Origin: a phage
Sequence record: PZ715804.1
Length of the DNA: 49,773 nucleotides
Direction: 5' to 3' (one strand)
The position numbers were made by a program, and so were the translations under genes. Positions 1 to 29,264 of this stretch are shown here, piece by piece (the stretch's first letter is position 1; the number at the start of each line of letters is the position of its first letter). The notes under the pieces are model-generated. The model was not told the DNA's origin. It worked only from the letters and a program-made list of their open reading frames with translations, and made no database searches.

Positions 1-275
1 ATGGCGTTTATAATAACTATGGAATTAAGCCTATCACGGTTGTTGGTTGGAACTTTTTGTCAGCAGGACAGAATTCAGCATCGTTCAGCTATCAAGTTCC
101 TCCTGGTATGCATGTGAATTACGTTATAAGCCTTGACGATGGCGCCATTAGTGGGCCTGGCAGGAAAATTATTGCTAGTGGTAATACGATAACAGTAACG
201 CCAACAAACTCACCCGAGCCAAACGTGTATCCATCATCAAACTGTTACTTAATAGCATATCTGGAGAATGATTAA
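1..275 (+). CDS. hypothetical protein, 3' portion truncated by window start (codon phase starts at nt 3); likely the continuation of the ORF that starts at 49743 if the genome is circular
   Basis: Open frame from window edge to TAA at 273-275; junction with the window end is in frame. Confidence 0.4.
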   Translation, partial: GVYNNYGIKPITVVGWNFLSAGQNSASFSYQVPPGMHVNYVISLDDGAISGPGRKIIASGNTITVTPTNSPEPNVYPSSNCYLIAYLEND

Positions 276-964
276 TGTCATACGGTGCTTTTATAGATGT
301 AAACGGAAACCCATTCATAACCCCGTTATCCACGCCATTCGCCTTATATGCGAAAGGGGAAATTCAATCAGTAAATGTTAGTGGTTCACAGGTTGCGGAG
401 AGATATGTTCGGATACCTACAGGTGTTCCGGTTATAGCTTTTTGCAAAACAACAAACACGCAGCAGGGGACCGCGCTTTCAGCCTTTACTTTCAGAAGCG
501 GACCCAATGTTGGAACTGTTTATATAAGGGGGACAAATCCAGCAAACCAATCATACACGCTAACATATTACATATTTGCCATATTTGAGCAGTCACTACC
601 GAGCTGGGGTATGGCAATATGGGATGCGTCAGGAAAGCTAGTGCTGACAAATGAGACAAAAGTCCTTAGTGATTTGGTTACAATCGGCACTCCTGGGTAC
701 GCTGGCGGTGGGCTAAACATAGACGCAACACTCAGCGGAAGCTACGCAGTTGTCCCAACTATACTTGGCAACTATCAAATTGTTATCGGCAGATTGCCAA
801 CTGGGCAACCCATAATAGGAAACTCAACAGCAGGCAGTTCATGCAGATACAACGGGAGCACAACGAGAATAAATGCAGCAGCAACCACTGCGGCAGGTCG
901 GATATTGAACACCACGAATAATGGAAATATTATAACAGCAATAAAAACGGCAGCATACGACTAA
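275..964 (+). CDS. hypothetical protein (229 aa), possibly tail/fibre-associated given position downstream of J-like gene
   Basis: ORF track; GGAGA RBS before ATG 275; intrinsic terminator follows. Confidence 0.45.
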   Translation: MSYGAFIDVNGNPFITPLSTPFALYAKGEIQSVNVSGSQVAERYVRIPTGVPVIAFCKTTNTQQGTALSAFTFRSGPNVGTVYIRGTNPANQSYTLTYYIFAIFEQSLPSWGMAIWDASGKLVLTNETKVLSDLVTIGTPGYAGGGLNIDATLSGSYAVVPTILGNYQIVIGRLPTGQPIIGNSTAGSSCRYNGSTTRINAAATTAAGRILNTTNNGNIITAIKTAAYD

Positions 965-987
965 GCCCCTTTCGGGGCTTTTCTTTT
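965..987 (+). terminator. intrinsic terminator after the 275..964 gene
   Basis: GCCCC-TTTC-GGGGC hairpin then TTTTCTTTT. Confidence 0.7.
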
Positions 988-1213
988 ACATCGAGCAATC
1001 GTGAGACTTGAAGTTATTCTCTGATACGTAATGGAATGAGAATGGATACCCAGCACGCAACAGCATCTCATCACCGCGCATCTTTGATCCAAAAACGGAA
1101 ACCGAGTACTCTGCGTCACCTGATTCATAAATCGCAGTACAAGTGCGCTCAGGCATCGATGAGCAACCAGTCAGGATGAATGCCGCAGCAATAATGGTGA
1201 TTAATTTTTTCAT
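986..1213 (-). CDS. cor: Cor-like small lipoprotein (superinfection exclusion candidate)
   Basis: 75 aa from internal Met with GAGGA RBS; signal peptide MKKLITIIAAAFILTGC with lipobox LTGC; location after tail-tip genes as in T1/phi80-type phages. Confidence 0.5.
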   Translation of the reverse strand: MKKLITIIAAAFILTGCSSMPERTCTAIYESGDAEYSVSVFGSKMRGDEMLLRAGYPFSFHYVSENNFKSHDCSM

Positions 1214-1294
1214 TTGCATGTCCTCGTCGTTAGTGTGATTGCATTGTATGTCGCATTTACTTTTATTGCAATAGCGCAATTACAATTTTTTTTC

Positions 1295-1465
1295 GTGTAA
1301 CGGGTGTCTATTTTTGTAACTGGAGATGGTGTTACAAAATCTACCCAATCCGAACGCAGGTAGATATGATAAAAACTCTATATAATATATATAGATAGAT
1401 AATATTTAATTTTAGCTTTATATATATAATTATTGTTGTGTAACAGTTGTCTATCGTGTAACTGG
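1295..1465. repeat. two imperfect direct repeats (about 29 bp, at 1295-1323 and 1438-1465) flanking an extremely AT-rich core (1374-1436)
   Basis: GTGTAAC-nGn-TGTCTAT-n-TGTAACTGG in both units. Confidence 0.6.
1312..1339. promoter_or_regulatory. perfect 9 bp inverted repeat TTTTGTAAC-N10-GTTACAAAA (candidate operator)
   Basis: Arms at 1312-1320 and 1331-1339; related GTTACAAAA half-sites at 19918-19926 and 20168-20178. Confidence 0.45.
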
Positions 1466-1682
1466 TGATTTGATTGATTCGTCAAATTTCTATCATATAT
1501 GTTCAAAATTTAATCAATATGGATTCTACTTGTAGCTATCCCTGTATTTCTAAGAAAAAGCGGTTACAAGTATTACACAGTAGACATCACATAAAAATAG
1601 ACTTAAGCCATTGATTCCGTTAATGCTGGTTGTAACTTGAGCGATATAGACACGCTATTACACACCAATTACATGTATCCGA

Positions 1683-1710
1683 TTGACTAAACGCTGTTAA
1701 TGGCTATAAT
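1683..1710 (+). promoter_or_regulatory. near-consensus sigma70-type promoter upstream of exonuclease-erf-ssb genes
   Basis: TTGACT, 16 nt spacer, TATAAT about 30 nt before the exonuclease ATG. Confidence 0.5.
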
Positions 1711-1741
1711 GGATTCATCGTAAACGAGGGAGATAAACGCA

Positions 1742-2806
1742 ATGTTCCAGGTGTTCACATCAAGTCAGCTTTCTAATGACGAGTATCATAGCAACGAAGG
1801 TTGGGCGGCAGAGTATGTAAGCGGTTCTAGCCTTGCAGAAATTTATCAGACTTGCCCGGCTAACTGGAGATTCAAGAAGAATGAGACAACGAAGGCGCTG
1901 GAGTTTGGTACTCAGTCGCATACCAACTTTGAGAGCCGAGATCTGTTTACTGCAACGTATGCACGTTGTCCGGCTCCGTCAGAGTTCAAGGATCTGATTA
2001 CGTCACAAGCCGCACTGGCTGCAAAATTAAAATCTTTCGGCCTGAAAGGTACATCCGGTAAGCAGTACCCGGACCTCATCAAGATGATGGTTGATTGCGG
2101 TGAAGAGCTAAACGTCCAATATCTGATCGAGTTGATTGCGGAAGCAGAGGCGCGCTCTGAAGGAAAGAAATTGGTTGACGCTGACAAATACGACGCTTGC
2201 ATGAAGATGAGAGCAATCCTTGAACAAAATCCTGATCACGAAGCGTGCATCAACAGTGAAACGGCGCAGCGTGAGATTTCAATCTTCGGTGAGATATCCG
2301 GCGTCAAGGTTAAGGTTCGACTTGACCATCTGGACTACAAAGAGAATGTTCCAGGTCGTGTCCTGACTGGTTATGATGAGAATGGAGATCCGGTATTCGA
2401 AGATGTTATTTTCCCTGAAGCACTGATTATCACTGACTTCAAAACAACAATGAGCGCCAACCCGTTAGAGTTCCCGAGACTGGCATACAATCACGGGTAT
2501 TATCTGAAAATGGCCTTGCAGCATGATCTGCTACGACGCGCAATCCAGGCTGGCGCTTTTGAAGGCAACTTCCCGGAAGATATCCCGATCGTAGTTCGAT
2601 TGCTGGCTCAGGAGAAAAAAGAGCCTTACATCGCACTTGCTTACCGTATGACTATGGAGCAAATCAGGATCGGTCGTAGCCAGTATGTTAGCGTAGTCCA
2701 CACTTACAAGGCTTGCTCTGAAATGGATGTTTGGCCTGGGTACGCTGGCGACGCAAGCGAGATTGAACTTGAAACGCCATCATGGGTGCGTTACCAAAAT
2801 AAGTAA
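1742..2806 (+). CDS. PD-(D/E)XK family exonuclease (recombination exonuclease)
   Basis: 354 aa; motifs RLDHLD and IITDFKTT (D-x-K) plus YNHGYYLK; sits immediately upstream of ERF and SSB. Confidence 0.55.
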   Translation: MFQVFTSSQLSNDEYHSNEGWAAEYVSGSSLAEIYQTCPANWRFKKNETTKALEFGTQSHTNFESRDLFTATYARCPAPSEFKDLITSQAALAAKLKSFGLKGTSGKQYPDLIKMMVDCGEELNVQYLIELIAEAEARSEGKKLVDADKYDACMKMRAILEQNPDHEACINSETAQREISIFGEISGVKVKVRLDHLDYKENVPGRVLTGYDENGDPVFEDVIFPEALIITDFKTTMSANPLEFPRLAYNHGYYLKMALQHDLLRRAIQAGAFEGNFPEDIPIVVRLLAQEKKEPYIALAYRMTMEQIRIGRSQYVSVVHTYKACSEMDVWPGYAGDASEIELETPSWVRYQNK

Positions 2807-4015: not shown

Positions 4016-5572
4016 TCATTTGGACTTCAACATTTTTATCTCTTCTTGTAACTCTTCAACTTTCTTTATTGTATCCTGTAAAGCTCTCATAGTGTCAAGC
4101 AATAAAGGAGTTGTATCAAGCTCAAGCCTTTCAACTTTTGGCCCGTTTAGCTCGTGGCTCTCATACACCCTTCTCTTAACATATAGATTGTCGATCTCTT
4201 CTATCTCCTGAGCTATAACACCTCTCCTTACCCTTTCTTGCTCATCATCGTTAAATATAAAGTTCCTAAATCTCATTGATTTTATGTTGTTGTATGCAAT
4301 GCTTGATTCATCATCCTTTATGCCGTGCTTTATATTTCTGTCAGATGCCGGAACCTGTTGGAAACTTCCAGCCCCTTGCGGTCCAGCGTAAGATATTTGC
4401 CCTGAAGCCATAAACCTGAAATGCATTTGCAGACCAATATTGCCTGCTCCATCCCTATTTTGAGTGCCTACTGATATTTGTGCCCTGGGCCATTCAGGAT
4501 TACCCGTAGTCATCATGCCAAATGCTACGCCGCCAACGTATCCCTGACCTCTGGTGTCACACGATCCAGCAATAAGTGATTGATAGTTTTCAGCACCACT
4601 ATCAGCGGTGTAAGCATTACCCTGGAAGCATGAAGCAGACCACATCTGGTTGTAACCCATAGATGTTTTCTGGCATAAAAACTGATTAGCTCTGAATCTA
4701 TTGTTAGTCTCGAAGTAGTTTGCCCCCTCATAAAATAATAAAGCCCCAGCATAACCATTATCGCTACGTTCTTTTCTGACGTAAATACCTGGCGTAGATA
4801 TTCCATCAGGTGACATAATCATCAATGATGACAATATGGACTGACTACCCCAGCTAGAACCGTCCCATGAATTCCTTCCTGCACCTATAGCGCCAGTGGT
4901 GTTAATAGTAAGAAAGTTAACAGCATCATTTTCACCTAACCCAATATTTTTTCTTGACTCTTTTTTATCCTCAAGACCAGCTAGATTGCCATCCTTAGTT
5001 AAAAGATTTTCAGCGTCAACGCTATTTGCTGCGTCCTTTGCTTCCTGCGCACTGACTGCTGCTGCATCTTTTGCGCTAACCGCTGCATCGCGTGCAGCGT
5101 TGGCTGCGTCACGCGCTAATTCAGCCTGATTTTGCGCAGCTTGAGAATCAGATTTCGCCTGATTCACATCAGCAACTATTTGCTCAAGTTTATTCATATC
5201 AGCAACTATTTGCTCAAGTTTATTCATATCAAGCTGATTTATCAGGTCTATAGCTGCCGCAATCTCAGTCTCTTTGCTTTGATAGTATCGAAGAGTCTCG
5301 GCGACGTTTTGAGCTAATCCGTTAACGGTTAGAGAGTCATTAAGTAGGATCACATACTTACCGTCATCGGCAGTCTGACCATCAGTAGAGATAGCCTTTA
5401 ATTCTGTATCACTAACGATATCGCTAATCACAGCTAGCTTAATTGGTTGCTCAAGGAACACGATAGTTGCACCTACGCGAATAAGAGCAAGCTGGTCTTT
5501 CCATTTTGTATCGGTTCCGTGAACCGTTCCGTCTGCATCCATTGATGCAGTGCCGCGTCGATATAAAGCCAT
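4016..5572 (-). CDS. tail fibre protein with C-terminal intramolecular chaperone (peptidase S74-like) domain
   Basis: 518 aa; coiled-coil region with duplicated MNKLEQIVAD; C-terminal segment RRGVIAQEIEEIDNLYV typical of S74 autoproteolytic chaperone domains; AAGGAG RBS. Confidence 0.75.
   Translation of the reverse strand: MALYRRGTASMDADGTVHGTDTKWKDQLALIRVGATIVFLEQPIKLAVISDIVSDTELKAISTDGQTADDGKYVILLNDSLTVNGLAQNVAETLRYYQSKETEIAAAIDLINQLDMNKLEQIVADMNKLEQIVADVNQAKSDSQAAQNQAELARDAANAARDAAVSAKDAAAVSAQEAKDAANSVDAENLLTKDGNLAGLEDKKESRKNIGLGENDAVNFLTINTTGAIGAGRNSWDGSSWGSQSILSSLMIMSPDGISTPGIYVRKERSDNGYAGALLFYEGANYFETNNRFRANQFLCQKTSMGYNQMWSASCFQGNAYTADSGAENYQSLIAGSCDTRGQGYVGGVAFGMMTTGNPEWPRAQISVGTQNRDGAGNIGLQMHFRFMASGQISYAGPQGAGSFQQVPASDRNIKHGIKDDESSIAYNNIKSMRFRNFIFNDDEQERVRRGVIAQEIEEIDNLYVKRRVYESHELNGPKVERLELDTTPLLLDTMRALQDTIKKVEELQEEIKMLKSK
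5162..5221. repeat. in-frame tandem repeat, two copies of 30 bp (one mismatch), inside the tail fibre coiled-coil
   Basis: ATTCA(C/T)ATCAGCAACTATTTGCTCAAGTTT twice, partial third copy follows; encodes MNKLEQIVAD twice on the minus strand. Confidence 0.85.
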
Positions 5573-5672: not shown

Positions 5673-6608
5673 TTAAAGTAGGTCGCTTGCTGAGAATAAT
5701 TTGGCTTGCATTCCTGAGCGGTATCCTCCCGGATTTGGGATGATTATCTTTAATTGTCGATCGTCAGCCATATATAGTGTTTCTTTGTCTGAAGGCTCGC
5801 ACGCCACCCGCATCTCCCGATCCCCATTGTATCTGTAAGCAACCATTTCGAGATTTTCAGGAGTGAAGCAGGCCCATACTTCTTGCTTTGTGTGAAATGC
5901 AATATGCTGAGCATCAATCCAGTTCAGGCATAAGTAGATCGCCTTTTCTGTTTTACCAGTCACGGCAACCGAGCAACTCGTGTATTTCTTCGCGTAAAAT
6001 GATTCTCTTCCTTCCTCATCAATAATCAAAATATTGCAAAACTCGTCATCAAGCCCGTCCTCGTGTACAAGTTGACACGGGATAGTGTGAAATAACGATT
6101 CCCCGCCATCCTCTCGGCGTTTTACGCCAACGTCGAATGATTCAGTAGGAAGAGACTCAAACACGCTTAGAGGAGTGTTTACGCGCTTCTCTGTGCGCTC
6201 CATGACTTTCATCACCGCTTCATGATCTGCCATCATGACATTGACACCCGATACCGGAGTCCGGCGCGCTTTCTTGTTTGCCTTGACGATGTATTCCTGC
6301 GGAACTTTTCCGAGAAATCTTCCCAGGATATTTATGCATTCGCTATACGGCATACCAGTTAATTTCATCAACCAACCTATCCCGGAGTCGTTACCGCATG
6401 AGTTGCAGATTGCACCGCCGTCTCCTGGGGTATTCAGATTGTCTGTCCAGCGAAAACGGTCTTTACCTCCACAGTTAGGGCAAGGTTGATGCTTCTTGTT
6501 GAATACCTCGTTAGGTAATCCGCATAATGACTGGAATGCATCTCGCCATAACCCCTTCATATACGGCAAGACGTCCTCTTTCTGAAACATCATAAACTCT
6601 TCGTTCAC
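5673..6608 (-). CDS. putative DNA primase (zinc-ribbon primase-like)
   Basis: 311 aa; GTG start with GGAG RBS; CPNCGGKDRFRW...CNSCG zinc-ribbon typical of phage/plasmid primases. Confidence 0.5.
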   Translation of the reverse strand: MNEEFMMFQKEDVLPYMKGLWRDAFQSLCGLPNEVFNKKHQPCPNCGGKDRFRWTDNLNTPGDGGAICNSCGNDSGIGWLMKLTGMPYSECINILGRFLGKVPQEYIVKANKKARRTPVSGVNVMMADHEAVMKVMERTEKRVNTPLSVFESLPTESFDVGVKRREDGGESLFHTIPCQLVHEDGLDDEFCNILIIDEEGRESFYAKKYTSCSVAVTGKTEKAIYLCLNWIDAQHIAFHTKQEVWACFTPENLEMVAYRYNGDREMRVACEPSDKETLYMADDRQLKIIIPNPGGYRSGMQAKLFSASDLL

Positions 6609-6664: not shown

Positions 6665-6686
6665 TGTTTTAACTAAAAATGCTATT
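6665..6686 (-). promoter_or_regulatory. motif copy (minus orientation) encoding the last codons and stop of the HTH gene
   Basis: Minus-strand reading AATAGCATTTTTAGTTAAAAC; followed by terminator then primase RBS. Confidence 0.4.
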
Positions 6687-7121
6687 TGTCGTTCCAATAT
6701 CTTCCTTCTTCACGACCCGCATAAACTTCTTGTTTTTGCAGCGCTTCTCAAGGCACTTTCCGTTCCCATCAAACTTCAGATCGAATCGCAGCCATGCGGC
6801 CCGAAATCCTTTGCAACCCTGTCGGCGATAAGCACGATGCGCCGCTTCAGCGCCTTGCCAGGAAATCATATTTCGATCCTTCCAACCTTGAACCGTCTGA
6901 TTGCTAACTTTCAGAGCCTTTGCACAAGCCGCCGGACCACCATAATATTCAATAAGAGCATCCAATCGCGCTCTCAGTCCTGCGCGCGTTTCTTCTTTAT
7001 GGATATAAAATCCGCAGCGCTGGCGAGGCTTTTTATCTTTACCGCGTCGCGTTCCGTTGTTACCATTGATGTGACGTTTATCGATTTCACCAGTAGACTC
7101 TGCGATACGTTTCATATTCAT
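6669..7121 (-). CDS. putative DNA-binding protein (Cro/YdaS-like HTH)
   Basis: Start at internal Met (MNMKRIAE) with GGAGAA RBS; HTH-like AACAKALKVSNQTVQGWKDRNMIS; basic; C-terminus ...TNSIFS* is encoded by the repeated motif. Confidence 0.4.
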   Translation of the reverse strand: MNMKRIAESTGEIDKRHINGNNGTRRGKDKKPRQRCGFYIHKEETRAGLRARLDALIEYYGGPAACAKALKVSNQTVQGWKDRNMISWQGAEAAHRAYRRQGCKGFRAAWLRFDLKFDGNGKCLEKRCKNKKFMRVVKKEDIGTTNSIFS

Positions 7122-9234: not shown

Positions 9235-9647
9235 TTACAGACAAAGGTGGTTATTTAGAATTTTACGAGAGAGATCCAAGCGACACTCGAAAGGAGGACG
9301 CTCATCAGGTGGATTGTGTATCCTGGCTGAAATACAATTTTCCTCACCTTCTATTTTGGCACACTGTCAATGAAGGTGAAAAAACAATCACATCGGCGCT
9401 CAGGGATGAGCAGGCCGGATTACTTAAAGGCGTGTCAGACTTCGTTATCCTGATTGGTGTTAACTCACGATACCCGTTTGCAGCAATCGAACTTAAGCGG
9501 GTTAATAAGTCAGGCAAAGGAAAGGCGTCACCAGTCAGCGACAAGCAAAGGGAATTTCTCCAAAAGGTCCGGGAGCGTGGCGGCTTCTCTGCCGTCGCAT
9601 ACGGATTCGGGCAATTCAAGATCGCAATTTACGAAATGATGAAATAG
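9231..9647 (+). CDS. VRR-NUC domain nuclease
   Basis: 138 aa; PD-(D/E)XK-type motifs VSDFVILIG ... AIELKRVN ... KQREFL; start overlaps helicase stop (ATGA). Confidence 0.6.
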   Translation: MITDKGGYLEFYERDPSDTRKEDAHQVDCVSWLKYNFPHLLFWHTVNEGEKTITSALRDEQAGLLKGVSDFVILIGVNSRYPFAAIELKRVNKSGKGKASPVSDKQREFLQKVRERGGFSAVAYGFGQFKIAIYEMMK

Positions 9648-11202: not shown

Positions 11203-11434
11203 CGCAGAAGATTATCAGACTATCTGGATCGGAAAAAAGCAGGTTAAGAAAATCCCTTTCTCTGATTGGTTGCCTCCTGACTTCGTTAATGTGCTTTGCA
11301 CCATCGGTATGGAACAGGAGTTGCATATAGGTTATTACTCACCAGGTAGAAACAGCATAATGCTTGAGGTTGATGGGAAACTTGTTGAGTTTAAATCTTC
11401 AGATCTCGGATTCTGGTTAAAGGCTGTGGCATGA
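11033..11434 (+). CDS. hypothetical protein (frame B; no start codon near where frame A stops, so a frame discontinuity is suspected)
   Basis: 133 aa ORF in +1 frame relative to 10930..11202; protein-like C-terminal half. Confidence 0.3.
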   Translation: MLASSQTERFHLWKICREKCIECQPPHHLNFIVKKERELSENEKQQRTTSLPGLNINAEDYQTIWIGKKQVKKIPFSDWLPPDFVNVLCTIGMEQELHIGYYSPGRNSIMLEVDGKLVEFKSSDLGFWLKAVA

Positions 11435-11512
11435 ATCTTTATTTTGCTGTAGTATTAACACCGCTAATTTCATTTTTAGTAATGTATTTCATTATCATGT
11501 AAGGATTAAAAT

Positions 11513-12664
11513 ATGTCACAAGCTAAAATCACTACCGAACAACTTGTCGAAGAGCGCATGAACGGCCTAACACTTCGCGAGATCGCGGAAAAGTACGGTA
11601 TGCACATTCGAACTGTTGAAGCTCGCCACGCAAAGTTGGCAAAAGAAGGTCACTTCCACGGTAACGAGCATGTTGCTAAGAACGTACCGGAAGGATTCAT
11701 GGTAAAAGGCACATCAACGATGATTCGCGGCGATGGGACCGAGGTGGTGCGCTGGGTTAAGACCGATCAGGACCGTGAGAAGATTGCAGCAATGATGGAA
11801 GCGGCGCGTATTGCATTCTGTGAAGATCTGCCGCGAGCAAAGCCAACTGAGCTACTAACCTCACAAGGGCTTACGACAGCGATGGGTAAGCTGGCACTCT
11901 ATCCGGTATTCGATCTTCATATTGGCGCGCTTGCTCATAAGCATGAATGCGGAGAGAACTATTCTACCGATGTGGCGGAAAAAGTGCTGAGTGACTTCTT
12001 TAATTACGCGATCGATATTGCTCCGAACGCAGAGAAGGCTGTTCTGTTAATCGGCGGTGACTTCCTGCACTCTGACGGACTTGATGCAGTTACTCCGGCA
12101 AGCGGTCACGTTCTTGATCAGGATTCACGATATGCAAAATTGGTGCATGTAGCTATTCGATCTGTTCGTCGCGCTATCGACAAAATGCTGACTAAACACA
12201 AAGAGGTCGAAGTTCAGGTTGTCGAAGGAAACCACGACCAGGCCGGGATGATTTGGTTGCGCGCCGCAATGGCTGCATACTATGAAGACGAGCCGAGAGT
12301 ATTCGTTGACGTAAGCCCTATGGTTCTACATAAGACTCGCTGGGGAAATACTTTGCTTGGATATACTCACGGTCACACGATGAAAAAGGCAGAGACTCGA
12401 CTCGCAGCTATGGCAGCAGATTTCCGCGCAGATTTTGGTGAAAGCAAATACGTGTACACGCATAGCGGACACTGGCATCATCAGACAATCACTGAACACT
12501 CGTTAGGTATTGATGAGGTTCACGGGCAGTTAGGCGCGAAAGATGCATACGCCGCGCGAGGTGGGTGGCGCTCATATCGCCAGGCGGCGGTAATCGTTTA
12601 CGATAAACAGTTTGGTGAAATCGGTCGATTCATATATCGTCCAGAAATGACAGGATCGCACTAA
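11513..12664 (+). CDS. calcineurin-like metallophosphoesterase with N-terminal HTH-like region
   Basis: 383 aa; phosphoesterase motifs VFDLHIG, GGDFLHSDG, VEGNHDQ; N-terminal LTLREIAEKYGMHIRTV. Confidence 0.5.
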   Translation: MSQAKITTEQLVEERMNGLTLREIAEKYGMHIRTVEARHAKLAKEGHFHGNEHVAKNVPEGFMVKGTSTMIRGDGTEVVRWVKTDQDREKIAAMMEAARIAFCEDLPRAKPTELLTSQGLTTAMGKLALYPVFDLHIGALAHKHECGENYSTDVAEKVLSDFFNYAIDIAPNAEKAVLLIGGDFLHSDGLDAVTPASGHVLDQDSRYAKLVHVAIRSVRRAIDKMLTKHKEVEVQVVEGNHDQAGMIWLRAAMAAYYEDEPRVFVDVSPMVLHKTRWGNTLLGYTHGHTMKKAETRLAAMAADFRADFGESKYVYTHSGHWHHQTITEHSLGIDEVHGQLGAKDAYAARGGWRSYRQAAVIVYDKQFGEIGRFIYRPEMTGSH

Positions 12665-14659: not shown

Positions 14660-16228
14660 TTAACCCATCAGTCGAGGGTTGATGAAAACAATATCATCAA
14701 TCCGGCAAGTGTAGTTCATCTCTTCGAGCGTGATCAGCAGGCTGTCGATTCGCTCAGATACTTTCTGTTGACCGTTGAACGGCGTAACGTTCCGGCACTT
14801 TGCAACGATGCTATGAATAGGTGCGCGGCCTTTGTTCTTCTTCGCGATCTCAGTGATAACATCAATCAGCTTACGAGATTCAGCCTCATCACCTGCATAC
14901 CCGGCAGCGCTGGCAGATGACAGATAAGTCCTGGAAAGCTCATTAAAAATCATGATTGCTTCCTGCATTGTTTCAAGATCTATCTCACGATTGGAACGGT
15001 TCGGTGATTCACCCTCCCAATTCTTGATCGTGTGGAGAACTGAAGCAATACGCAAGGCGTGCTTATCGAACTTGCCGAGATGACCGCGTAGCATTGAGTG
15101 AGAGTATTTCCCACCTGCGGAGAAATCCGGTTCCATCGCCTGACGCGCAAGGTTTAATTCACGCATAGCATTACGACTAACAGATAGAACAACGTTTTCC
15201 TCCTTCATAATGTTGTGCACGAGTCGATAATATTTACTCACCAATCCTCGATCGACTTCCTTATACAGCGCATCACCATTTTCATCGCAAAGGATACGAG
15301 TACCTAAAAGCGGCTCCTCACGAACTAAAAGGAAGCGCTCAGACACACCGATACCTCGCTGGCCTGCGTCCATGATACCCTTGATTGTTTCATCCTGCGC
15401 AATAACGCAGATTGAACCGACCGGGCAAAGGGACAAGTTGTTATCCTGGTTGGAACGCGCGACCTCCATATGGTTTTTATCCCACGCCTTAAGGATAAGC
15501 TCGCTGTTTGATTTCTTATCTGAACCGCCATACGTAAGCCCGAGCAATGTATTGATTGCCGTTGCCTCGTCAGATATTACGGAGAAGTGACCTTGCACTG
15601 CCGCCACCTTCGCTAGACCTTCAGGTGTAGGATCTGATACCGCGAAAACAATATCAGCCATCTTCTTGATCTTTTCTTCCAGTTTTTCCTTGTCTTCGTA
15701 CAGCGCCGCCGTCGTGTTACCCTTCGGATCGTTTTTGATTTCTTTCTCGACCTGACGTAGCTGACTGGTTAAACGGATGCGTTCCTTTTTGCGCTCTTCA
15801 TTCAGTCGCTGAATCTCTGCGCGCATAGGAGTTATCGCCGCTGAGTTAATAGCGGACTTACCTGTTGATGGTGGCTGGCTGATTACCATGTAAAGCGCGG
15901 TCGGCTGTTCTTCGCCGTGATATTGCACCCAAAACTTCCCGAGCATCGCGGCTGAGATGCACCCAATGAAATGAGCGTACGCAGACGAAACCGGAAACTG
16001 TACAGACTCAGCCTTTGCCTTTGCATATTCGAATACCAGGTTATCGCCACCTAACGAAATCAGCGGGAACTTATCGTTTCCACTGTTGATATCGATCGGA
16101 TCTTGCCAAAACGAAACTGAATCCCCATAGCTGTTTTCACGAATTGCGATCGCCACCGGATTAACTCCAGTGCTATTTGCGATCTCAATAATCTGTTGGT
16201 AATTCAATTTTGGCTTAATATTAAACAT
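14660..16228 (-). CDS. P-loop NTPase, DUF3987-like (primase/helicase-associated)
   Basis: About 522 aa from ATG (or GTG 16231) behind AAGGAG RBS; Walker A-like PPSTGKS; driven by minus-strand cassette 16258-16302. Confidence 0.45.
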   Translation of the reverse strand: MFNIKPKLNYQQIIEIANSTGVNPVAIAIRENSYGDSVSFWQDPIDINSGNDKFPLISLGGDNLVFEYAKAKAESVQFPVSSAYAHFIGCISAAMLGKFWVQYHGEEQPTALYMVISQPPSTGKSAINSAAITPMRAEIQRLNEERKKERIRLTSQLRQVEKEIKNDPKGNTTAALYEDKEKLEEKIKKMADIVFAVSDPTPEGLAKVAAVQGHFSVISDEATAINTLLGLTYGGSDKKSNSELILKAWDKNHMEVARSNQDNNLSLCPVGSICVIAQDETIKGIMDAGQRGIGVSERFLLVREEPLLGTRILCDENGDALYKEVDRGLVSKYYRLVHNIMKEENVVLSVSRNAMRELNLARQAMEPDFSAGGKYSHSMLRGHLGKFDKHALRIASVLHTIKNWEGESPNRSNREIDLETMQEAIMIFNELSRTYLSSASAAGYAGDEAESRKLIDVITEIAKKNKGRAPIHSIVAKCRNVTPFNGQQKVSERIDSLLITLEEMNYTCRIDDIVFINPRLMG

Positions 16229-18852: not shown

Positions 18853-18898
18853 ATTATGCCAAATCACACCGATCGAGTTTTAACAAAAAGTGCTATTT
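18853..18898 (-). promoter_or_regulatory. motif-spacer-(-10) cassette (minus strand)
   Basis: Minus-strand reading TAGCACTTTTTGTTAAAAC, 22 nt spacer, CATAAT; motif also encodes the Dcm-like C-terminus. Confidence 0.5.
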
Positions 18899-19584
18899 GC
18901 GATTGCTTTAAAAAATCCCCTGGGCGACAGGGATCGTATCAGCTTAGTTTTGGCAGACTTGCCGCCTAGCTTACTGTGCTGTGCAGAGTACCCGTCAGGT
19001 AGGCTTACAGGTTTTCTCTCGGGCATGACAAAATCGTCAGAGGTCCAAAGGCAAGTTTTCTTCGGGTAAGCATCGCGCGGCGCAATATACATCGGGAACC
19101 AGGGGTGTGAGTCATTCTCAGGAAGATAGCCGCCATACTCCCAGGGATTGAAGGAGTGATTTGGTTTTCTCCAGGCAGATGACAGGACGCTAACCGGATT
19201 CTCAATGATGTAAGTCACGCCCAGGGCGTCGCCAATATTTGCAGCAATCCGGGCGGTGGCAACAGCCTTCTCCTGGAATAACGGATCGCGTTCACGCTTT
19301 CTTGCGAAGTGAGCGGCACCACTAACAGCCAGGTCAGTGCACGGAGGGAAAGCCATAATGAAATCCGGCTTGCCATACACGCCAGCGATAGCATCACGCT
19401 CAAACGCTGCGTCAATGAACACGTTCACATACTCAATGTTCTGATGCTCCACTCTGGCATTGCACTTTGCATAATCCCCGTGATCGGCTCCGTCAAAGTT
19501 GAAGCACATCACCTTGTGACCTTGCTTAGCCAGTTCATGACCTGCAAGGCCGGAACCGTCGAATAGCGACCAGATTAATTTCAT
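18880..19584 (-). CDS. dcm: DNA cytosine-5 methyltransferase-like protein (short, Dcm-like)
   Basis: 234 aa; motif I LFDGSGLAG, motif IV FPPCTDLAVSG, ENV-like IIENPV; C-terminus ...ANSTFC* is encoded by the repeated motif. Confidence 0.6.
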   Translation of the reverse strand: MKLIWSLFDGSGLAGHELAKQGHKVMCFNFDGADHGDYAKCNARVEHQNIEYVNVFIDAAFERDAIAGVYGKPDFIMAFPPCTDLAVSGAAHFARKRERDPLFQEKAVATARIAANIGDALGVTYIIENPVSVLSSAWRKPNHSFNPWEYGGYLPENDSHPWFPMYIAPRDAYPKKTCLWTSDDFVMPERKPVSLPDGYSAQHSKLGGKSAKTKLIRSLSPRGFFKAIANSTFC

Positions 19585-19616
19585 TGCAAATATCCTCTGA
19601 TTGGTTGATGTGATGA

Positions 19617-19662
19617 ATCATACCCTGCCAGCCTGACCAAATCGTTAGCAAAAAATGCTATT
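19617..19662 (-). promoter_or_regulatory. motif-spacer-(-10) cassette (minus strand) upstream of the Dcm-like gene
   Basis: Minus-strand reading TAGCATTTTTTGCTAAC, 22-23 nt spacer, TATGAT; then CCAATCAGAGGA RBS. Confidence 0.45.
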
Positions 19663-20276
19663 CCAATAGTTGCTCATTATTCCATCATCAATGGAATATC
19701 TGGAATAATTACGATCCCGATTGATCTCGAATGATGAAATGTGATTGTTGCATGGCGTGCAACTGTTGATGTGATTATTGCTTAGAATGCAATGATTGTG
19801 AGAGGGAGAATTTAGTGTTACCCGGTTCGCCTGGTGGTCATCTCCATTTTTAGCAAAACGTGCTATTCGTCTATGCGGTAGTTGTAATTGTCGTAATAGT
19901 TGTATACCATCAGGGGTGTTACAAAATGGCCCGAGAATCGATAGGCCTATAGATAATAAAATATCTATATATAATAATAAGATAGATAATATATATTTAT
20001 TTATTTATTATATTATATATTGGTATGTAATCGGCGTAATAGGTGCAACCGCATTTTTTGAGGGTGGCATATATTTCGTGATGCATAGTATAAAAAACAT
20101 ACTATTCCGCGCGCATAAATAGATGTGCTTGCTTTTATAGAAAAAGTCGGTTGCATCGGTTGCACTGGTTACAAAAATAAAAAATGCAGCTATAGACATT
20201 GACGCGCCTGACGTTGTAGCTGTAACATGTTTTTCGAAGTTGAAAGTTACACCCATAGACAACGAGGTATAGACAA
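19663..20276. promoter_or_regulatory. repeat-rich intergenic control region between divergent early blocks, with AT-rich core (about 19938-20018) and three ATAGACA words (20192, 20255, 20269)
   Basis: No convincing ORF; short palindromes (TTCCAT-N5-ATGGAA, GTTGCATGGCGTGCAAC), repeated TGATGTGATT words, about 80 bp of almost pure A/T. Confidence 0.5.
19847..19869 (-). promoter_or_regulatory. motif copy (minus orientation) with no downstream gene, at the edge of the AT-rich control region
   Basis: Plus-strand TTTTTAGCAAAACGTGCTATTCG. Confidence 0.35.
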
Positions 20277-20852
20277 GTGAAAACTCAGCTTAAAGAAGTG
20301 ACAGGATTTGAACTCAACCTGCCGGACTATATTCGAAAGGCGATTGAAATCCACCAATCAGGGAATGAGTTCTCAATCACTGGAAAGCAAATGGTTGAAG
20401 TGTACGTCAATGAGCAGGCCGAGATTGTAAAGGCTACTCAGGGCGTGGAGCTTAACGATGACCAGATCGATGAGGCTGTCGTTAACGAGTACACATCTCG
20501 ATCAGCCTGGTTGATCGAACGACTCACCGCGTCGTATGTGTCCAATATCATCAAGCGCCATATGCTCAAGGTTCACAGTAAGGCCGTATCCGTGCGAATC
20601 AATCGCGATCAGGTGGATGGCGTTACGATATTCATCGCCAAACTCGAAGGCGAGGAGGCAGAGAAGGCCATAGGCGAAGCGAAGCAGGGTAAGAGAGGCC
20701 GGAAGCGAAAGAGCATATCCGACGTGTTCAATGCGAAGGTTGAAGCGTTCAGGATCGACCTGAGAGATTTTGAAGGTAGCAATATCTCAGTGTCGGATCT
20801 CAATAAGCTGGTTGAGCAGCTCCGATCACATTTACTTGATGAGGAGAAGTAA
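20277..20852 (+). CDS. hypothetical protein (191 aa), first gene of rightward early block
   Basis: ORF track; GTG start after GAGG; basic stretch KQGKRGRKRK. Confidence 0.5.
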   Translation: MKTQLKEVTGFELNLPDYIRKAIEIHQSGNEFSITGKQMVEVYVNEQAEIVKATQGVELNDDQIDEAVVNEYTSRSAWLIERLTASYVSNIIKRHMLKVHSKAVSVRINRDQVDGVTIFIAKLEGEEAEKAIGEAKQGKRGRKRKSISDVFNAKVEAFRIDLRDFEGSNISVSDLNKLVEQLRSHLLDEEK

Positions 20853-21300: not shown

Positions 21301-21771
21301 ATGGCGACCATTACCGTATTCCTGGCTAAAGATGAGCTTGATGGCGAAATGTCATTCTTCGCGTTTGAGCACAAGACAGGATCGCACTGGCATACGTACA
21401 CTCACTACACGGTCATATCAATTGAGGCGTACGATGACGAACTGCTCACTGACAAACTGAGTAATTTCATTGAAGCCGTTAAAGCTAGCGGCGGCTGCGA
21501 GTGGAAGGAAGATCACGAAGTTATGCGAATGTTTGAGATGGTCAATCCGGTTCGCCTTGAGTCGTTCGAACTTGATGCTGATGTGACTATCAAGGTGAGA
21601 AAGTCGGGTGAGCTATTGCCAGGGATGCGTGTGCTGACTGGTTACTCGGGCCGTAAGGTGTGGCGCACTGTATCTAAGATTCGCCAGCGTTCGGCAACAT
21701 GCTATAGCGTATTCTTTGATGATGGTTGGAATATGATGTCAGGCAGTGAGGTAAAGTATCTCACCAAATAG
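21301..21771 (+). CDS. hypothetical protein
   Basis: 156 aa; stop TAG is the first triplet of a motif copy. Confidence 0.55.
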   Translation: MATITVFLAKDELDGEMSFFAFEHKTGSHWHTYTHYTVISIEAYDDELLTDKLSNFIEAVKASGGCEWKEDHEVMRMFEMVNPVRLESFELDADVTIKVRKSGELLPGMRVLTGYSGRKVWRTVSKIRQRSATCYSVFFDDGWNMMSGSEVKYLTK

Positions 21772-21817
21772 CACTAATTGTTAAAACAGGATCGGGGTAT
21801 CTTGCTATAGTTACCCC
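21769..21817 (+). promoter_or_regulatory. motif-spacer-(-10)-hairpin cassette
   Basis: TAGCACTAATTGTTAAAAC, 22 nt spacer, TATAGT in hairpin GGGGTA...TACCCC. Confidence 0.55.
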
Positions 21818-21849
21818 ATCAAAACGAGATACCAATCAGAGGATTCACC

Positions 21850-22600: not shown

Positions 22601-22792
22601 ATGGCTGATTTTATGCACCAAATGATTGCAGTATTCAAAGGTAGTGATGACCAGGAAGTGAAAGAGTGCTTTACCGTTGACAAGCCTTATAACGCGTCAC
22701 TAACCAGCTTCGGGAATATCTCATTGCTTGATGATAATGGCGATCCCTGGATATTCGATGAAGATACGGATTGCTTCGAAATTAAAGAATAG
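22601..22792 (+). CDS. small acidic hypothetical protein
   Basis: 63 aa; stop TAG is the first triplet of a motif copy. Confidence 0.45.
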   Translation: MADFMHQMIAVFKGSDDQEVKECFTVDKPYNASLTSFGNISLLDDNGDPWIFDEDTDCFEIKE

Positions 22793-22838
22793 CACTTTTT
22801 GTTAAAACGCGTTCATGGGGTTGCGATATAGTAACCCC
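22790..22838 (+). promoter_or_regulatory. motif-spacer-(-10)-hairpin cassette
   Basis: TAGCACTTTTTGTTAAAAC, 22 nt spacer, TATAGT in hairpin GGGGTT...AACCCC. Confidence 0.55.
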
Positions 22839-22863
22839 ATCAACAACGAAACGAGGATTTACC

Positions 22864-24127: not shown

Positions 24128-24276
24128 TGGCTGCATGGGTTTTGATTATCTTGATGAGTACCGGGCCGGATCACGTATACATGGAAAGCCAACAATCATG
24201 CAATAAGGCACGGGAAGTTATCGCAGAGAATAAGCCGTTCGGGTACGAAGTAAAAACAATGTGCGTTAAACGATAG
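24127..24276 (+). CDS. small hypothetical protein
   Basis: 49 aa, not in track; start overlaps previous stop; stop TAG begins a motif copy. Confidence 0.3.
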   Translation: MAAWVLIILMSTGPDHVYMESQQSCNKAREVIAENKPFGYEVKTMCVKR

Positions 24277-24320
24277 CACGAATTGCTAAACCTTCCGAAA
24301 GGCCATTTGTTATAATGGCC
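24274..24320 (+). promoter_or_regulatory. motif-spacer-(-10)-hairpin cassette
   Basis: TAGCACGAATTGCTAAAC, 22 nt spacer, TATAAT in hairpin GGCCAT...ATGGCC. Confidence 0.55.
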
Positions 24321-24356
24321 TTATTGAAGCAAGGCAACCAATCAGAGGAATAGGAT

Positions 24357-25893: not shown

Positions 25894-26340
25894 ATGAAAC
25901 ATTTGATTTGCATTGAAACGCCTAACGATGAATACACCCTGCACGGCATCGGAATGTTCAAAGGTCACTACATGACAGCAAGCATTTATGATGCGCGTCG
26001 CGGCGATGGCGATCTGATGATTAACTCAAAAGAGGTTAATCCGTACATCATGCAGAATCTTGGAAATAACGAATATATGGCCTACGGCTGCAATGCGGTG
26101 TACAAGAATATCAAGATCCGCAAGCGCGTCGTGCGAGCATTCAAGAAGATTGCAATGAAATACTGGAAAATGAGCAAGAAAGATGCCGGACGTTGGGCGC
26201 GCAACGTTGCAGATTCATACTTCTATCGTAACGGCGAATCCTGCTACTTTCTGATCGATGAGCTTATGGAAAACTACGGTGGCGACTTCAGTCAGGGTAG
26301 CTTTGACGCCTGGGCTGACTACGAGGTCGATTACTGGTAA
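25894..26340 (+). CDS. hypothetical protein
   Basis: Start at internal Met (MKHLICIET) behind GAGGGAA RBS, downstream of cassette 25821-25868. Confidence 0.5.
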   Translation: MKHLICIETPNDEYTLHGIGMFKGHYMTASIYDARRGDGDLMINSKEVNPYIMQNLGNNEYMAYGCNAVYKNIKIRKRVVRAFKKIAMKYWKMSKKDAGRWARNVADSYFYRNGESCYFLIDELMENYGGDFSQGSFDAWADYEVDYW

Positions 26341-26387
26341 TAGCACGAATTGCTAAAACTTGCTCAAGGGCATTTGATAGAATGCCC
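26341..26387 (+). promoter_or_regulatory. motif-spacer-(-10)-hairpin cassette
   Basis: TAGCACGAATTGCTAAAAC, 22 nt spacer, TAGAAT in hairpin GGGCAT...ATGCCC. Confidence 0.55.
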
Positions 26388-26423
26388 TTCGTTGAGTTAA
26401 GCAACCAATCAGAGGAATAAATC

Positions 26424-28569: not shown

Positions 28570-28772
28570 TGGCTAACTTACCGAAGAAAGGCGATCAGGT
28601 TCGATGTGTTACATCACGCAATGGTGATGCTTTCTCAGCGGGATGCTTGTATGACGTTGAAAAAGTAAGTAAAGCAAAGAGACTCGTATTTGTATACGGA
28701 GACGATGGAAATATTCATGAGATTGACTACCCGCAGGATATTACTAAGGGCCAATTTGAAATTAATGATTGA
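28569..28772 (+). CDS. small hypothetical protein (MKxxKC-like small domain)
   Basis: 67 aa; segment QVRCVTSRNGDAFSAGCLYDV. Confidence 0.45.
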   Translation: MANLPKKGDQVRCVTSRNGDAFSAGCLYDVEKVSKAKRLVFVYGDDGNIHEIDYPQDITKGQFEIND

Positions 28773-28936
28773 CCTGAATCTCTGAGCGGTGATAGTATTA
28801 ATCCCGTAGACAGACGAGGCGCAAATAAGCGCAACGCGTGAGACGATTCTCACACTTCCAGCTAACAAGCTCGGTTGCATAGTGGTTAAGCAACGCCGCA
28901 GACCCGTAAGCGGCAACAATTCAAGAGGATTGCATA

Positions 28937-29098
28937 ATGCAAAAAACTAAAGACGAATCAGTCAAAATTGAAATTAAAGTAACTCGCAACGGTGAAACCA
29001 CTAGTTATAAAAAACGATTAAATCCTGGCGAGGCTGTTATTGGTCGCATTGCTGGCGTTATGATTAAGGCGCAGGAAGATGAAGCGATTCAAAGTTAA
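28937..29098 (+). CDS. small hypothetical protein
   Basis: 53 aa, not in track; ATG after AAGAGGA RBS. Confidence 0.35.
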   Translation: MQKTKDESVKIEIKVTRNGETTSYKKRLNPGEAVIGRIAGVMIKAQEDEAIQS

Positions 29099-29264
29099 AT
29101 TAATTATTCGAAAGATGGGAATGTTTTGCCAGTCGTGCAAGCAATCTTTCGAAACTGAATTATCAGCAACCAGTCAGGATGAAGCCATCACGAAAGCAAA
29201 AAAACTTTCCGGCGCTAACCTTGACACTCACAAAATAAATATTGAATTAATCAAGGAGATTTAA
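29079..29264 (+). CDS. small hypothetical protein (start uncertain)
   Basis: ORF track; contains CQSC pair; overlaps previous ORF. Confidence 0.3.
   Translation: MKRFKVKLIIRKMGMFCQSCKQSFETELSATSQDEAITKAKKLSGANLDTHKINIELIKEI

Follow-up and report, generated by a model that had tools for sequence, protein, structure and literature searches.

The 49,773-nucleotide (nt) phage sequence PZ715804.1 (hereafter the window, meaning the whole stretch analysed) is a circularly permuted T1-like genome of the genus Tunavirus, family Drexlerviridae, with its genes ordered as in phage T1. Here we report that two distant intergenic regions of this genome, R1 (positions 1280–1741) and R2 (19585–20276), carry copies of one non-coding module of about 400 bases, in which short words repeated with a period of 9–10 base pairs (bp) flank a long AT tract. 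The pair of modules occurs in every T1-like phage examined and is, by sequence comparison, ancestral to the family. We favour, tentatively and with slightly less than even confidence, the reading that each module is an iteron-plus-unwinding-element replication origin placed between divergent early promoters, in the manner of the ori and crr regions of P4. R2 itself is composite: the module common with R1 occupies 19867–20276, and the left third (19585–19866) is a distinct element of a different kind. Both this division and the ancestry of the whole arrangement go beyond the first-pass annotation of the region, which had been made from the sequence letters.

A local alignment of 1327–1443 with 19914–20030, colinear over 115 bp, scores 33, compared with 11.8 ± 1.4 for dinucleotide shuffles and 13.3 ± 2.7 (maximum 24.5) for 25-bp block shuffles that keep the AT tract. 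The similarity that the first-pass annotation had proposed between R1 and R2 thus lies far above that expected of AT-rich DNA by chance. The shared word GTGTTACAAAAT that it had listed is present at 19916 and 1329 and extends to the 13-mer GGTGTTACAAAAT at 19915 and 1328; a second exact 13-mer, AGATAGATAATAT, is common to the two regions at 19980 and 1393, and the two 13-mers are 65 bp apart in both. The word GTTACAAAA was likewise found where it had been placed, at 20168. The proposal of duplicated control elements holds in that R1 and R2 are colinear paralogues with the same orientation and the same internal spacings (65 bp and 143 bp), and five other Drexlerviridae genomes show the same pairing.

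Many short words coincide by chance between AT-rich sequences, and mechanical open reading frames (ORFs) of 50–84 codons overlap the region, so that the likeness could be ascribed to chance between AT-rich spacers, or the region to unannotated small genes or RNAs. Against the former, the alignment scores far exceed composition-preserving nulls in five genomes, the spacings in the two regions are identical and the pair is conserved across the family; these results exclude a chance resemblance of R1 and R2. As for the latter, the statement that R2 holds no convincing ORF needs qualification, since mechanical ORFs are present at 19916–20122(+), 20008–20262(−) and 20013–20165(−), but these fall within the AT tract and within a cassette for which relatives have different sequence, and an Rfam scan gave no family match. 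We regard this explanation, in either form, as improbable in the extreme.

The AT tracts set the two regions apart from the rest of the genome. In the 49.8 kb, 60-bp windows with at least 85% AT occur only at 1360–1448 and 19940–20041 (maximum 95%), which confirms the AT run noted earlier in R2, and the two least stable 80-bp duplex segments of the genome are the AT tracts, with z = 6.4 for R2 and z = 5.5 for the other. The third most AT-rich and least stable segment (z = 3.5), at 11434–11514, lies between two rightward genes; it carries a promoter-like site on the minus strand (11519–11491) and lacks the module words.

The words are similarly concentrated. ATAGACA, present as previously noted at 20192, 20255 and 20269, has seven copies in the genome, six of which fall within R1 and R2 (p = 2e-10), as do 11 of the 30 genomic copies of GTTACA/TGTAAC (p = 2e-12), the words being counted over 1.75% of the genome. 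In both R1 and R2, a three-word arm with a period of 9–10 bp stands on each side of the AT tract, accompanied by an inverted arm. The arms flanking the tract are 143 bp apart in R2 (19883 and 20026) and in R1 (1295 and 1438), whereas the distance from the tract to the rightward promoter varies, from ~235 bp in R1 to ~158 bp in R2. Because the arm spacing is constant while the promoter distance changes, the arms and the AT tract behave as a unit of fixed geometry.

In R2, the module begins with the left arm (19883–19908, plus strand), which consists of three phased words, TGTAAT-TGTCGTAAT-AGTTGTATA, and is a direct repeat of the arm beyond the AT tract; a repeat search found 19883–19902 and 20026–20045 to be 85% identical at a spacing of 143. 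It is followed by GGTGTTACAAAAT (19915–19927, plus strand), a word in inverted orientation identical to R1 1328–1340, and by the AT tract (19933–20048), our proposed DNA-unwinding element, the core of which (19946–20022) is nearly pure A/T and which is paralogous to 1352–1461. The post-AT arm (20026–20058, plus strand), TGTAATCGGCGTAATAGGTGCAACC, repeats the left arm directly and the right arm in inverted orientation (the latter over 33 nt, 73% complementary, with 82 nt between the arms). The right arm (20141–20178, plus strand) is composed of three tandem 9-bp inverted units, CGGTTGCAT, CGGTTGCAC and TGGTTACAA, followed by AAAT, and aligns with the R1 arm GGTTACAAG/TATTACACAG/TAGACATCAC and with three copies of GATTAACAC in T1. 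Further right (20192–20228, plus strand), ATAGACA abuts a sigma70-like promoter, TTGACG-N18-TAACAT, identified by a promoter scan and directed into the rightward early operon. The equivalent promoter of phage TLS is P01, among only three sigma70-like promoters reported for that phage. The 5′ leader (20246–20279, plus strand) contains GTTACAC and then two copies of ATAGACA that bracket a GAGG Shine–Dalgarno sequence (20264–20267), ahead of the GTG start at 20277.

R1 contains the same parts in the same order, namely the left arm (1295–1320), GGTGTTACAAAAT (1328–1340), the AT tract (1352–1461), the post-AT arm (1438–1462), the right arm (1562–1590), further words (1630–1673) and the promoter TTGACT-N16-TATAAT (1683–1710, plus strand). 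This promoter, upstream of recE, is the sole match in the genome to 11 of the 12 sigma70 consensus positions, and it is conserved across the family (TTGACTAAACG...GGCTATAAT). R1, on the plus strand, lies between cor (leftward) and the exonuclease VIII gene recE (rightward), with the RecE, Erf and SSB genes directly downstream, and R2 lies between a leftward gene for a Dcm-like methyltransferase (18880–19584) and the first gene of a long rightward block (20277–20852). The latter coding sequence is annotated identically in the Chapo record, and its protein is in the database at 100% identity. Both regions match Escherichia and Shigella Tunavirus phages, at 88–100% identity.

Comparison with more distant relatives supports the antiquity of the pair. 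Of 46 relatives, represented by loci from viral contigs, 43 have an AT tract of this kind ahead of recE, over a range of exonuclease VIII identity that reaches down to 42%. In each of the complete genomes of T1, TLS (Tempevirinae) and Rogue1 (Rogunavirinae), the tracts of at least 85% AT number exactly two, at the same two syntenic sites. Same-orientation alignments of R1 with R2 within T1, TLS and two further lineages that yielded both regions (locus pairs L018/L068 and L020/L070) score 24–37, against nulls of 11–13, and the arm spacing of 143–144 bp recurs in TLS R1, TLS R2 and L020 R1. Among 14 distinct Tunavirus R1 sequences, 27 of the 192 columns in words and AT tract are variable, as opposed to 65 of the 196 in spacers (p = 9e-6, with feature boundaries set by us from the window sequence), and the AT tract is almost invariant.

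The words themselves are specific to lineages. Tunavirus modules use TGTAAC/TGTCTA, and all six genomic copies of TGTAACA in T1 are in its modules; TLS-like modules use TGTTCAC/TGTTCC, with four of the eight genomic copies of TGTTCAC in the TLS modules; and Rogue1 uses GCGTAT/TACGCGT, with all four genomic copies of TACGCGT in modules. As these phages all infect E. coli, such lineage-specific words point to a co-evolving phage-encoded reader rather than to a host protein. The common DNA-binding factor suggested by the first-pass annotation would thus be encoded by the phage, because the words differ among subfamilies that infect E. coli and yet stay common to R1 and R2 of each genome. Within Tunavirus, covariation of TGTCTA versus TGTATA between R1 and R2 failed, JMPW2 combining a window-type R1 with a T1-type R2, so that the covariation applies between subfamilies only.

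The same pattern bears on the idea that the modules are bound by host factors, such as regulators of the OmpR/ArcA type or H-NS, IHF and Fis, that time early expression. OmpR/ArcA-type response regulators bind direct repeats such as GTTACA or TGTTA phased at 10–11 bp, and the GTTACA-type half-sites of the modules, at ~10 bp, resemble OmpR-family sites; R1 also contains one match to the IHF core (1604–1616), and the DNA is extremely AT-rich. A fixed host protein, however, would keep the words constant, whereas they vary among subfamilies on the same host species while remaining common to both modules of a genome, and R2 has no IHF core and neither module a perfect DnaA box. We consider a host-factor explanation very unlikely.

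In Tunavirus, the part of R2 to the right of 19866 exists as three cassette types with 65–75% identity between them. Each type goes with a distinct allele of the first gene, and these alleles share only 24–30% protein identity. R1 and the small terminase are nearly invariant across the genus (97–100% identity for the small terminase). The right-arm units are specific to the cassette (CGGTTGCAT in the window, GATTAACAC three times in T1), while the arms flanking the AT tract keep TGTAAY/TGTMTA; the ACAAAAT part of GGTGTTACAAAAT is kept in all three types, and the −35 element of the R2 promoter can be aligned across all cassettes. More than 40 related genomes match the window only up to 19866, the 5′ end of a perfect 21-nt repeat, which places the left boundary of the cassette at 19866/19867. 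The perfect repeat may act as the recombination boundary.

Several features of the modules argue for the design of an origin: phased words surround the most meltable DNA of the genome, divergent promoters flank it, the geometry is fixed, the whole is duplicated and the words are lineage-specific. Phased word arrays with an adjacent AT-rich element, the structural hallmarks of an iteron origin, are present in both copies. We infer from this arrangement that the modules bind protein, unwind and serve as origins. Words spaced by 9–10 bp would lie on one face of the helix, and a phage-encoded, lineage-specific DNA-binding protein could coat them and wrap the DNA. Negative supercoiling from the divergent early promoters would then aid the opening of the AT tract, at which the phage's own MCM-like helicase and P4-alpha-like primase would be loaded, and replication might later switch to a RecE/Erf recombination-driven mode that yields concatemers. 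The right-arm words abutting the early promoter would probably couple early transcription to the same protein. Our literature search found no origin reported for T1-like phages and no description of these modules; the 2024 re-annotation of TLS found no iterons or origin (PMC11447400), and the SU57 paper found no oriC-like site.

Among known systems, the closest parallel is with P4. Its ori and crr are two distant cis regions in which the 8-bp word TGTTCACC (the alpha type I iteron) recurs with a period of 9–11 bp in direct and inverted orientation, at 9310, 9320 and 9331(−), 9353(+), and 9396 and 9406(−) in ori and at 4314 and 4323(+), among other positions, in crr. P4 also resembles the T1-like phages in having an intergenic region between divergent operons, and the phage primase is homologous to the primase domain of P4 alpha (alpha residues 20–253 against window 5868–6527(−), E = 1e-10). 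TLS-like modules contain tandem GTGAACA, which is seven of the eight positions of the P4 iteron TGTTCACC, and carry TGTTCACG/TGTTCACA. When TLS 100–588 and 28700–29117 were compared with P4 4291–4590 and 9300–9420, the vocabularies overlapped, P4 crr containing TGTTCACA-C-TGTTCACC-TTTC-TGTTTTC and the TLS-like modules using TGTTCAC, TGTTCC and TGTTTTC. The differences are nevertheless considerable. Only the primase domain has a match, and no multifunctional initiator of the alpha type (primase, superfamily 3 helicase and C-terminal winged-helix domain) was detected; the phage has its helicase as a separate protein, of the DUF3987 family and MCM-like; 18 to 31 kb separate the modules, compared with 4.7 kb in P4; and no stretch of P4 ori comes near the AT tract in length or purity.

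The modules also share features with the lambda-type and iteron-plasmid origins (ori-lambda; pSC101, R6K and P1 oriR), in which repeated initiator sites lie beside an AT-rich unwinding element and nearby transcription is placed to help opening. Replicons of the pSC101 type have inverted repeat copies lying over the promoter of the neighbouring gene, much as the right arm here stands beside the early promoter and the co-exchanged first gene. In contrast to those origins, the module words are 6–9 bp at a 9–10-bp period rather than iterons of 18–22 bp, the AT tract has arrays to its left and right, and there are two copies per genome; no homologue of an O or Rep initiator was found, and neither DnaA boxes nor GATC clusters. 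The T7 primary origin and T4 oriF and oriG offer a further parallel, as these virulent phages have their own primase and helicase, AT-rich elements at early promoters and more than one origin per genome, and a later switch to recombination-dependent replication is plausible here too, with RecE, Erf and SSB encoded just downstream of R1. The T7 and T4 promoters, however, read into the unwinding element, whereas the recognisable promoters here read away from the AT tract, and the T7 and T4 origins lack phased word arrays.

The candidate replication proteins and readers of the words were compared by sequence and predicted fold. The DUF3987 helicase (14660–16228, minus strand) has an AlphaFold2 model (predicted local distance difference test score, 89.5) whose best matches in the PDB are all MCM2–7 or archaeal MCM (Foldseek E down to 4e-5, TM score 0.3–0.38), and its C terminus is predicted to adopt a helix-strand-helix-helix-strand-strand winged-helix topology. 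A Cro/YdaS-like helix-turn-helix (HTH) protein (6669–7121, minus strand), recognised by a weak P22_Cro/YdaS-like match, is encoded upstream of the primase behind one of the few sigma70-type promoters (7201–7173, minus strand). Its putative recognition helix reads SNQTVQGW in Tunavirus, NLKTVWGW in TLS and TRQAVEEW in Rogue1, with conserved flanks. Direct sequence searches against the PDB gave no matches for the helicase or the HTH protein, and profile comparisons of the two with P4 alpha were not significant. The first-gene product (20277–20852, plus strand) is a member of a small family that evolves very fast but has a conserved basic patch (KRGRKRKS / KRRSRKKVS); its AlphaFold2 model (score, 80) has no fold match in the PDB and no recognisable DNA-binding fold, and it was set aside as a reader. 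Divergence between the window and TLS does not discriminate among the others, as the primase, the HTH protein and the helicase are all 57–59% identical.

Several results weigh against assigning the modules as origins. No protein that binds the words was identified among the HTH protein, the winged helix of the helicase and the first-gene product; in the helicase model, helix 3 of the winged helix is acidic and hydrophobic and would be a poor DNA reader, and we rejected it in that role. Comparisons at sequence and profile level detected no likeness of the helicase to the helicase part or the origin-binding domain of P4 alpha. The window modules have no copy of TGTTCACC within one mismatch, their words being TGTAAC/TGTCTA instead, and no extended DNA similarity to P4 ori or crr was found, TLS-type modules included, save a marginal one between P4 crr and L070 R2 (19.5 against a null maximum of 16). 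With TGTTCACC absent from the window modules, no alpha-type helicase or origin-binding domain detected and no DNA similarity beyond words except in that one pair, the modules are not members of the P4 system. They contain no perfect DnaA box and no GATC cluster (2 of the 237 genomic GATC sites, in 2.3% of the genome), so that they are not origins of the oriC or P1 type either; IHF cores and CCWGG clustering are not enriched in them, and cumulative GC skew follows the direction of transcription only and is uninformative. The Tunavirus R2 module and the first gene are exchanged as one cassette, whereas the replication proteins hardly differ, so for an origin only the TGTAAY/TGTMTA and ACAAAAT vocabulary could be what is read. 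Finally, the right-arm words and ATAGACA occupy positions at which transcription factors act (directly before the −35, and around the ribosome-binding site within the 5′ leader), and each module contains a promoter of the sigma70 type, of which there are only three, so that a purely transcriptional role would explain much of the anatomy.

Such a role would make the modules duplicated operator or enhancer regions, like lambda OL and OR, for two of the three sigma70 early promoters and for the leftward promoters facing them, without origin function. A phage regulator bound to the phased words would boost early transcription or shut it off, and the AT tract would provide curvature or upstream activation. 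Much fits this: each module ends in a sigma70-type promoter (TLS P01 and P51 being two of only three), and the sole 11/12 consensus promoter of the window lies in R1. On the right side, the words of the right arm directly precede the −35, which one ATAGACA abuts at 20199, and two further ATAGACA copies stand on either side of the ribosome-binding site; on the left, each left arm sits just upstream of an element for leftward transcription (the cor promoter, 1271–1243, and the repeat at 19866–19848, respectively). In Tunavirus, moreover, the right-arm units and the first downstream gene are exchanged together, as an operator and an autoregulated gene would be, and the third sigma70 promoter expresses a Cro-like HTH protein whose putative recognition helix differs between subfamilies. 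As in lambda, two distant regions have the same words in threes and divergent early promoters, with a specificity that varies and is exchanged by cassette.

The geometry, by contrast, is poorly accounted for by transcription. The AT tract, at 80–110 bp in length and 160–240 bp from the rightward promoter, is too long and too far away for an UP element, and the arms keep their 143 bp while the promoter distance varies. The third sigma70 early promoter, which lies upstream of the regulator–primase operon (7201–7173), has neither AT tract nor word arms, so the module is not a generic feature of early promoters. The words are direct repeats of 6–9 bp with a period of 9–10 bp, not the 14–20-bp palindromes of a Cro-like dimer; lambda operators are 17-bp palindromes over the −35 and −10, whereas short direct repeats here lie upstream of the −35, where only ATAGACA abuts it, and flank a long AT tract. 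No homologue of a CI-type repressor was found, the weak P22_Cro/YdaS-like match being the only HTH protein, and the first-gene product has no recognisable DNA-binding fold. We regard the purely transcriptional explanation as possible but doubtful, and retain the paired origins as the reading we favour.

The left third of R2 (19585–19866) differs in kind from the module. It is conserved in all Tunavirus, and its homology is recognisable in TLS, Rogue1 and other lineages. The first-pass annotation had described R2 as rich in repeated words; repeats are indeed present, but the word that it named, TGATGTGATT, occurs exactly only once in the region, at 19767, and what is truly repeated is GTTGATGTGAT (19604 and 19765) and a 24-nt unit (19739–19762 and 19769–19792). 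From left to right, the element contains a leftward promoter for the Dcm-like block (19617–19661, minus strand), with the degenerate repeat ATAGCATTTTTTGCTAACG (19661–19643, three mismatches) and a −10-like GGTATGAT at ~19624–19617; an inverted repeat with perfect 9-nt arms, ATTATTCCA / TGGAATAAT (19676–19709), conserved in T1 and LeonhardEuler; the 24-nt direct repeats ATGTGATTGTTGCATGGCGTGCAA and ATGTGATTATTGCTTAGAATGCAA (19739–19793, plus strand), each with a small palindrome; and the perfect 21-nt repeat core ATAGCACGTTTTGCTAAAA (19848–19866, minus strand, no mismatches), a second leftward promoter element.

The 21-nt direct repeat aaATAGCACnnnTTGnTAAAA was described for TLS by Kropinski, Misra et al. 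and noted in T1, Rtp and Rogue1 as intergenic and oriented with transcription, its function being listed as open (PMC11447400). Both copies in R2 conform to this description, as minus-strand copies placed ahead of the leftward Dcm-like gene, and the copy at 19661–19643 is kept upstream of the leftward first gene in all aligned lineages. The window has 27 copies of the pattern, where 2.2 are expected. R1 has none, and the module words TGTAAC and ATAGACA are distinct from aaATAGCACnnnTTGnTAAAA. Across the window, the repeat is followed 17–23 nt downstream by a −10-like element, often extended (TGnTATAGT/TATAAT), as at 21768–21830(+), 22789–22850(+), 24273–24335(+), 26340–26400(+) and 16801–16740(−). 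There is no −35 at the proper spacing, so that the repeat sits at roughly −58 to −38, and at many copies the −10 lies in the loop of a GC-rich hairpin of 6–8 bp, such as GGGGTA-tcttgcTATAGT-TACCCC. Neither the −10 nor the hairpin is mentioned in the TLS paper (PMC11447400).

The 24-nt repeats coincide with a packaging landmark. The T1 record NC_005833, which begins with GTTGCATGG, annotates a repeat_region at 1..2800 (a 2.8-kb terminal repeat, its left end being the pac end), and its position 1 aligns to window 19747, inside the first 24-nt repeat; the Chapo record starts at the same base. The direct repeat at 19747 carries the palindrome GTTGCA-N5-TGCAAC, and TLS and Rogue1 have G/T-rich TGATT-type repeats at the equivalent place. 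The segment 19739–19793 is therefore a candidate for the neighbourhood of pac cleavage.

Sites for pac cleavage, such as the one in SPP1, typically contain phased repeats, and the words of the shared module might accordingly be thought a recognition site of the small terminase, at which DNA is wrapped before the first cut. From the left end of the T1 record it is ~140 bp rightwards to the left arm, and both T1 and TLS use pac/headful packaging (PMC11447400). The module, however, is present in two copies, R1 lying ~18 kb away from the pac end and having no counterpart of the hairpin repeats at 19739–19793. Furthermore, the small terminase is 97–100% identical across Tunavirus, in contrast to the three R2 cassette types with their different words. 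We rejected a pac function for the shared module, which we hold to be highly improbable; such a function fits the conserved left third only.

T1 is one of the seven classic T phages, and T1-like phages are common contaminants of fermentations and laboratories as well as candidates for phage therapy. To our knowledge, the replication origin and early control circuitry of T1 have never been defined. The modules described here provide the T1 group with two family-conserved origin candidates of ~400 bp and defined anatomy. In a stronger form, which we put forward as an unlikely speculation, T1-like phages would replicate from a bipartite, P4-like pair of cis regions in which one phage initiator reads the lineage-specific words and loads the MCM-like helicase at the AT tracts, the pac-side module being an exchangeable cassette of origin plus first gene. 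If correct, the T1 group would thereby gain its first defined origin system, and an MCM-like helicase would have been recruited to iteron origins in a bacterial virus. The modules also offer a handle on the timing of early transcription in T1-like phages and on the exchange of the pac-side module between relatives.

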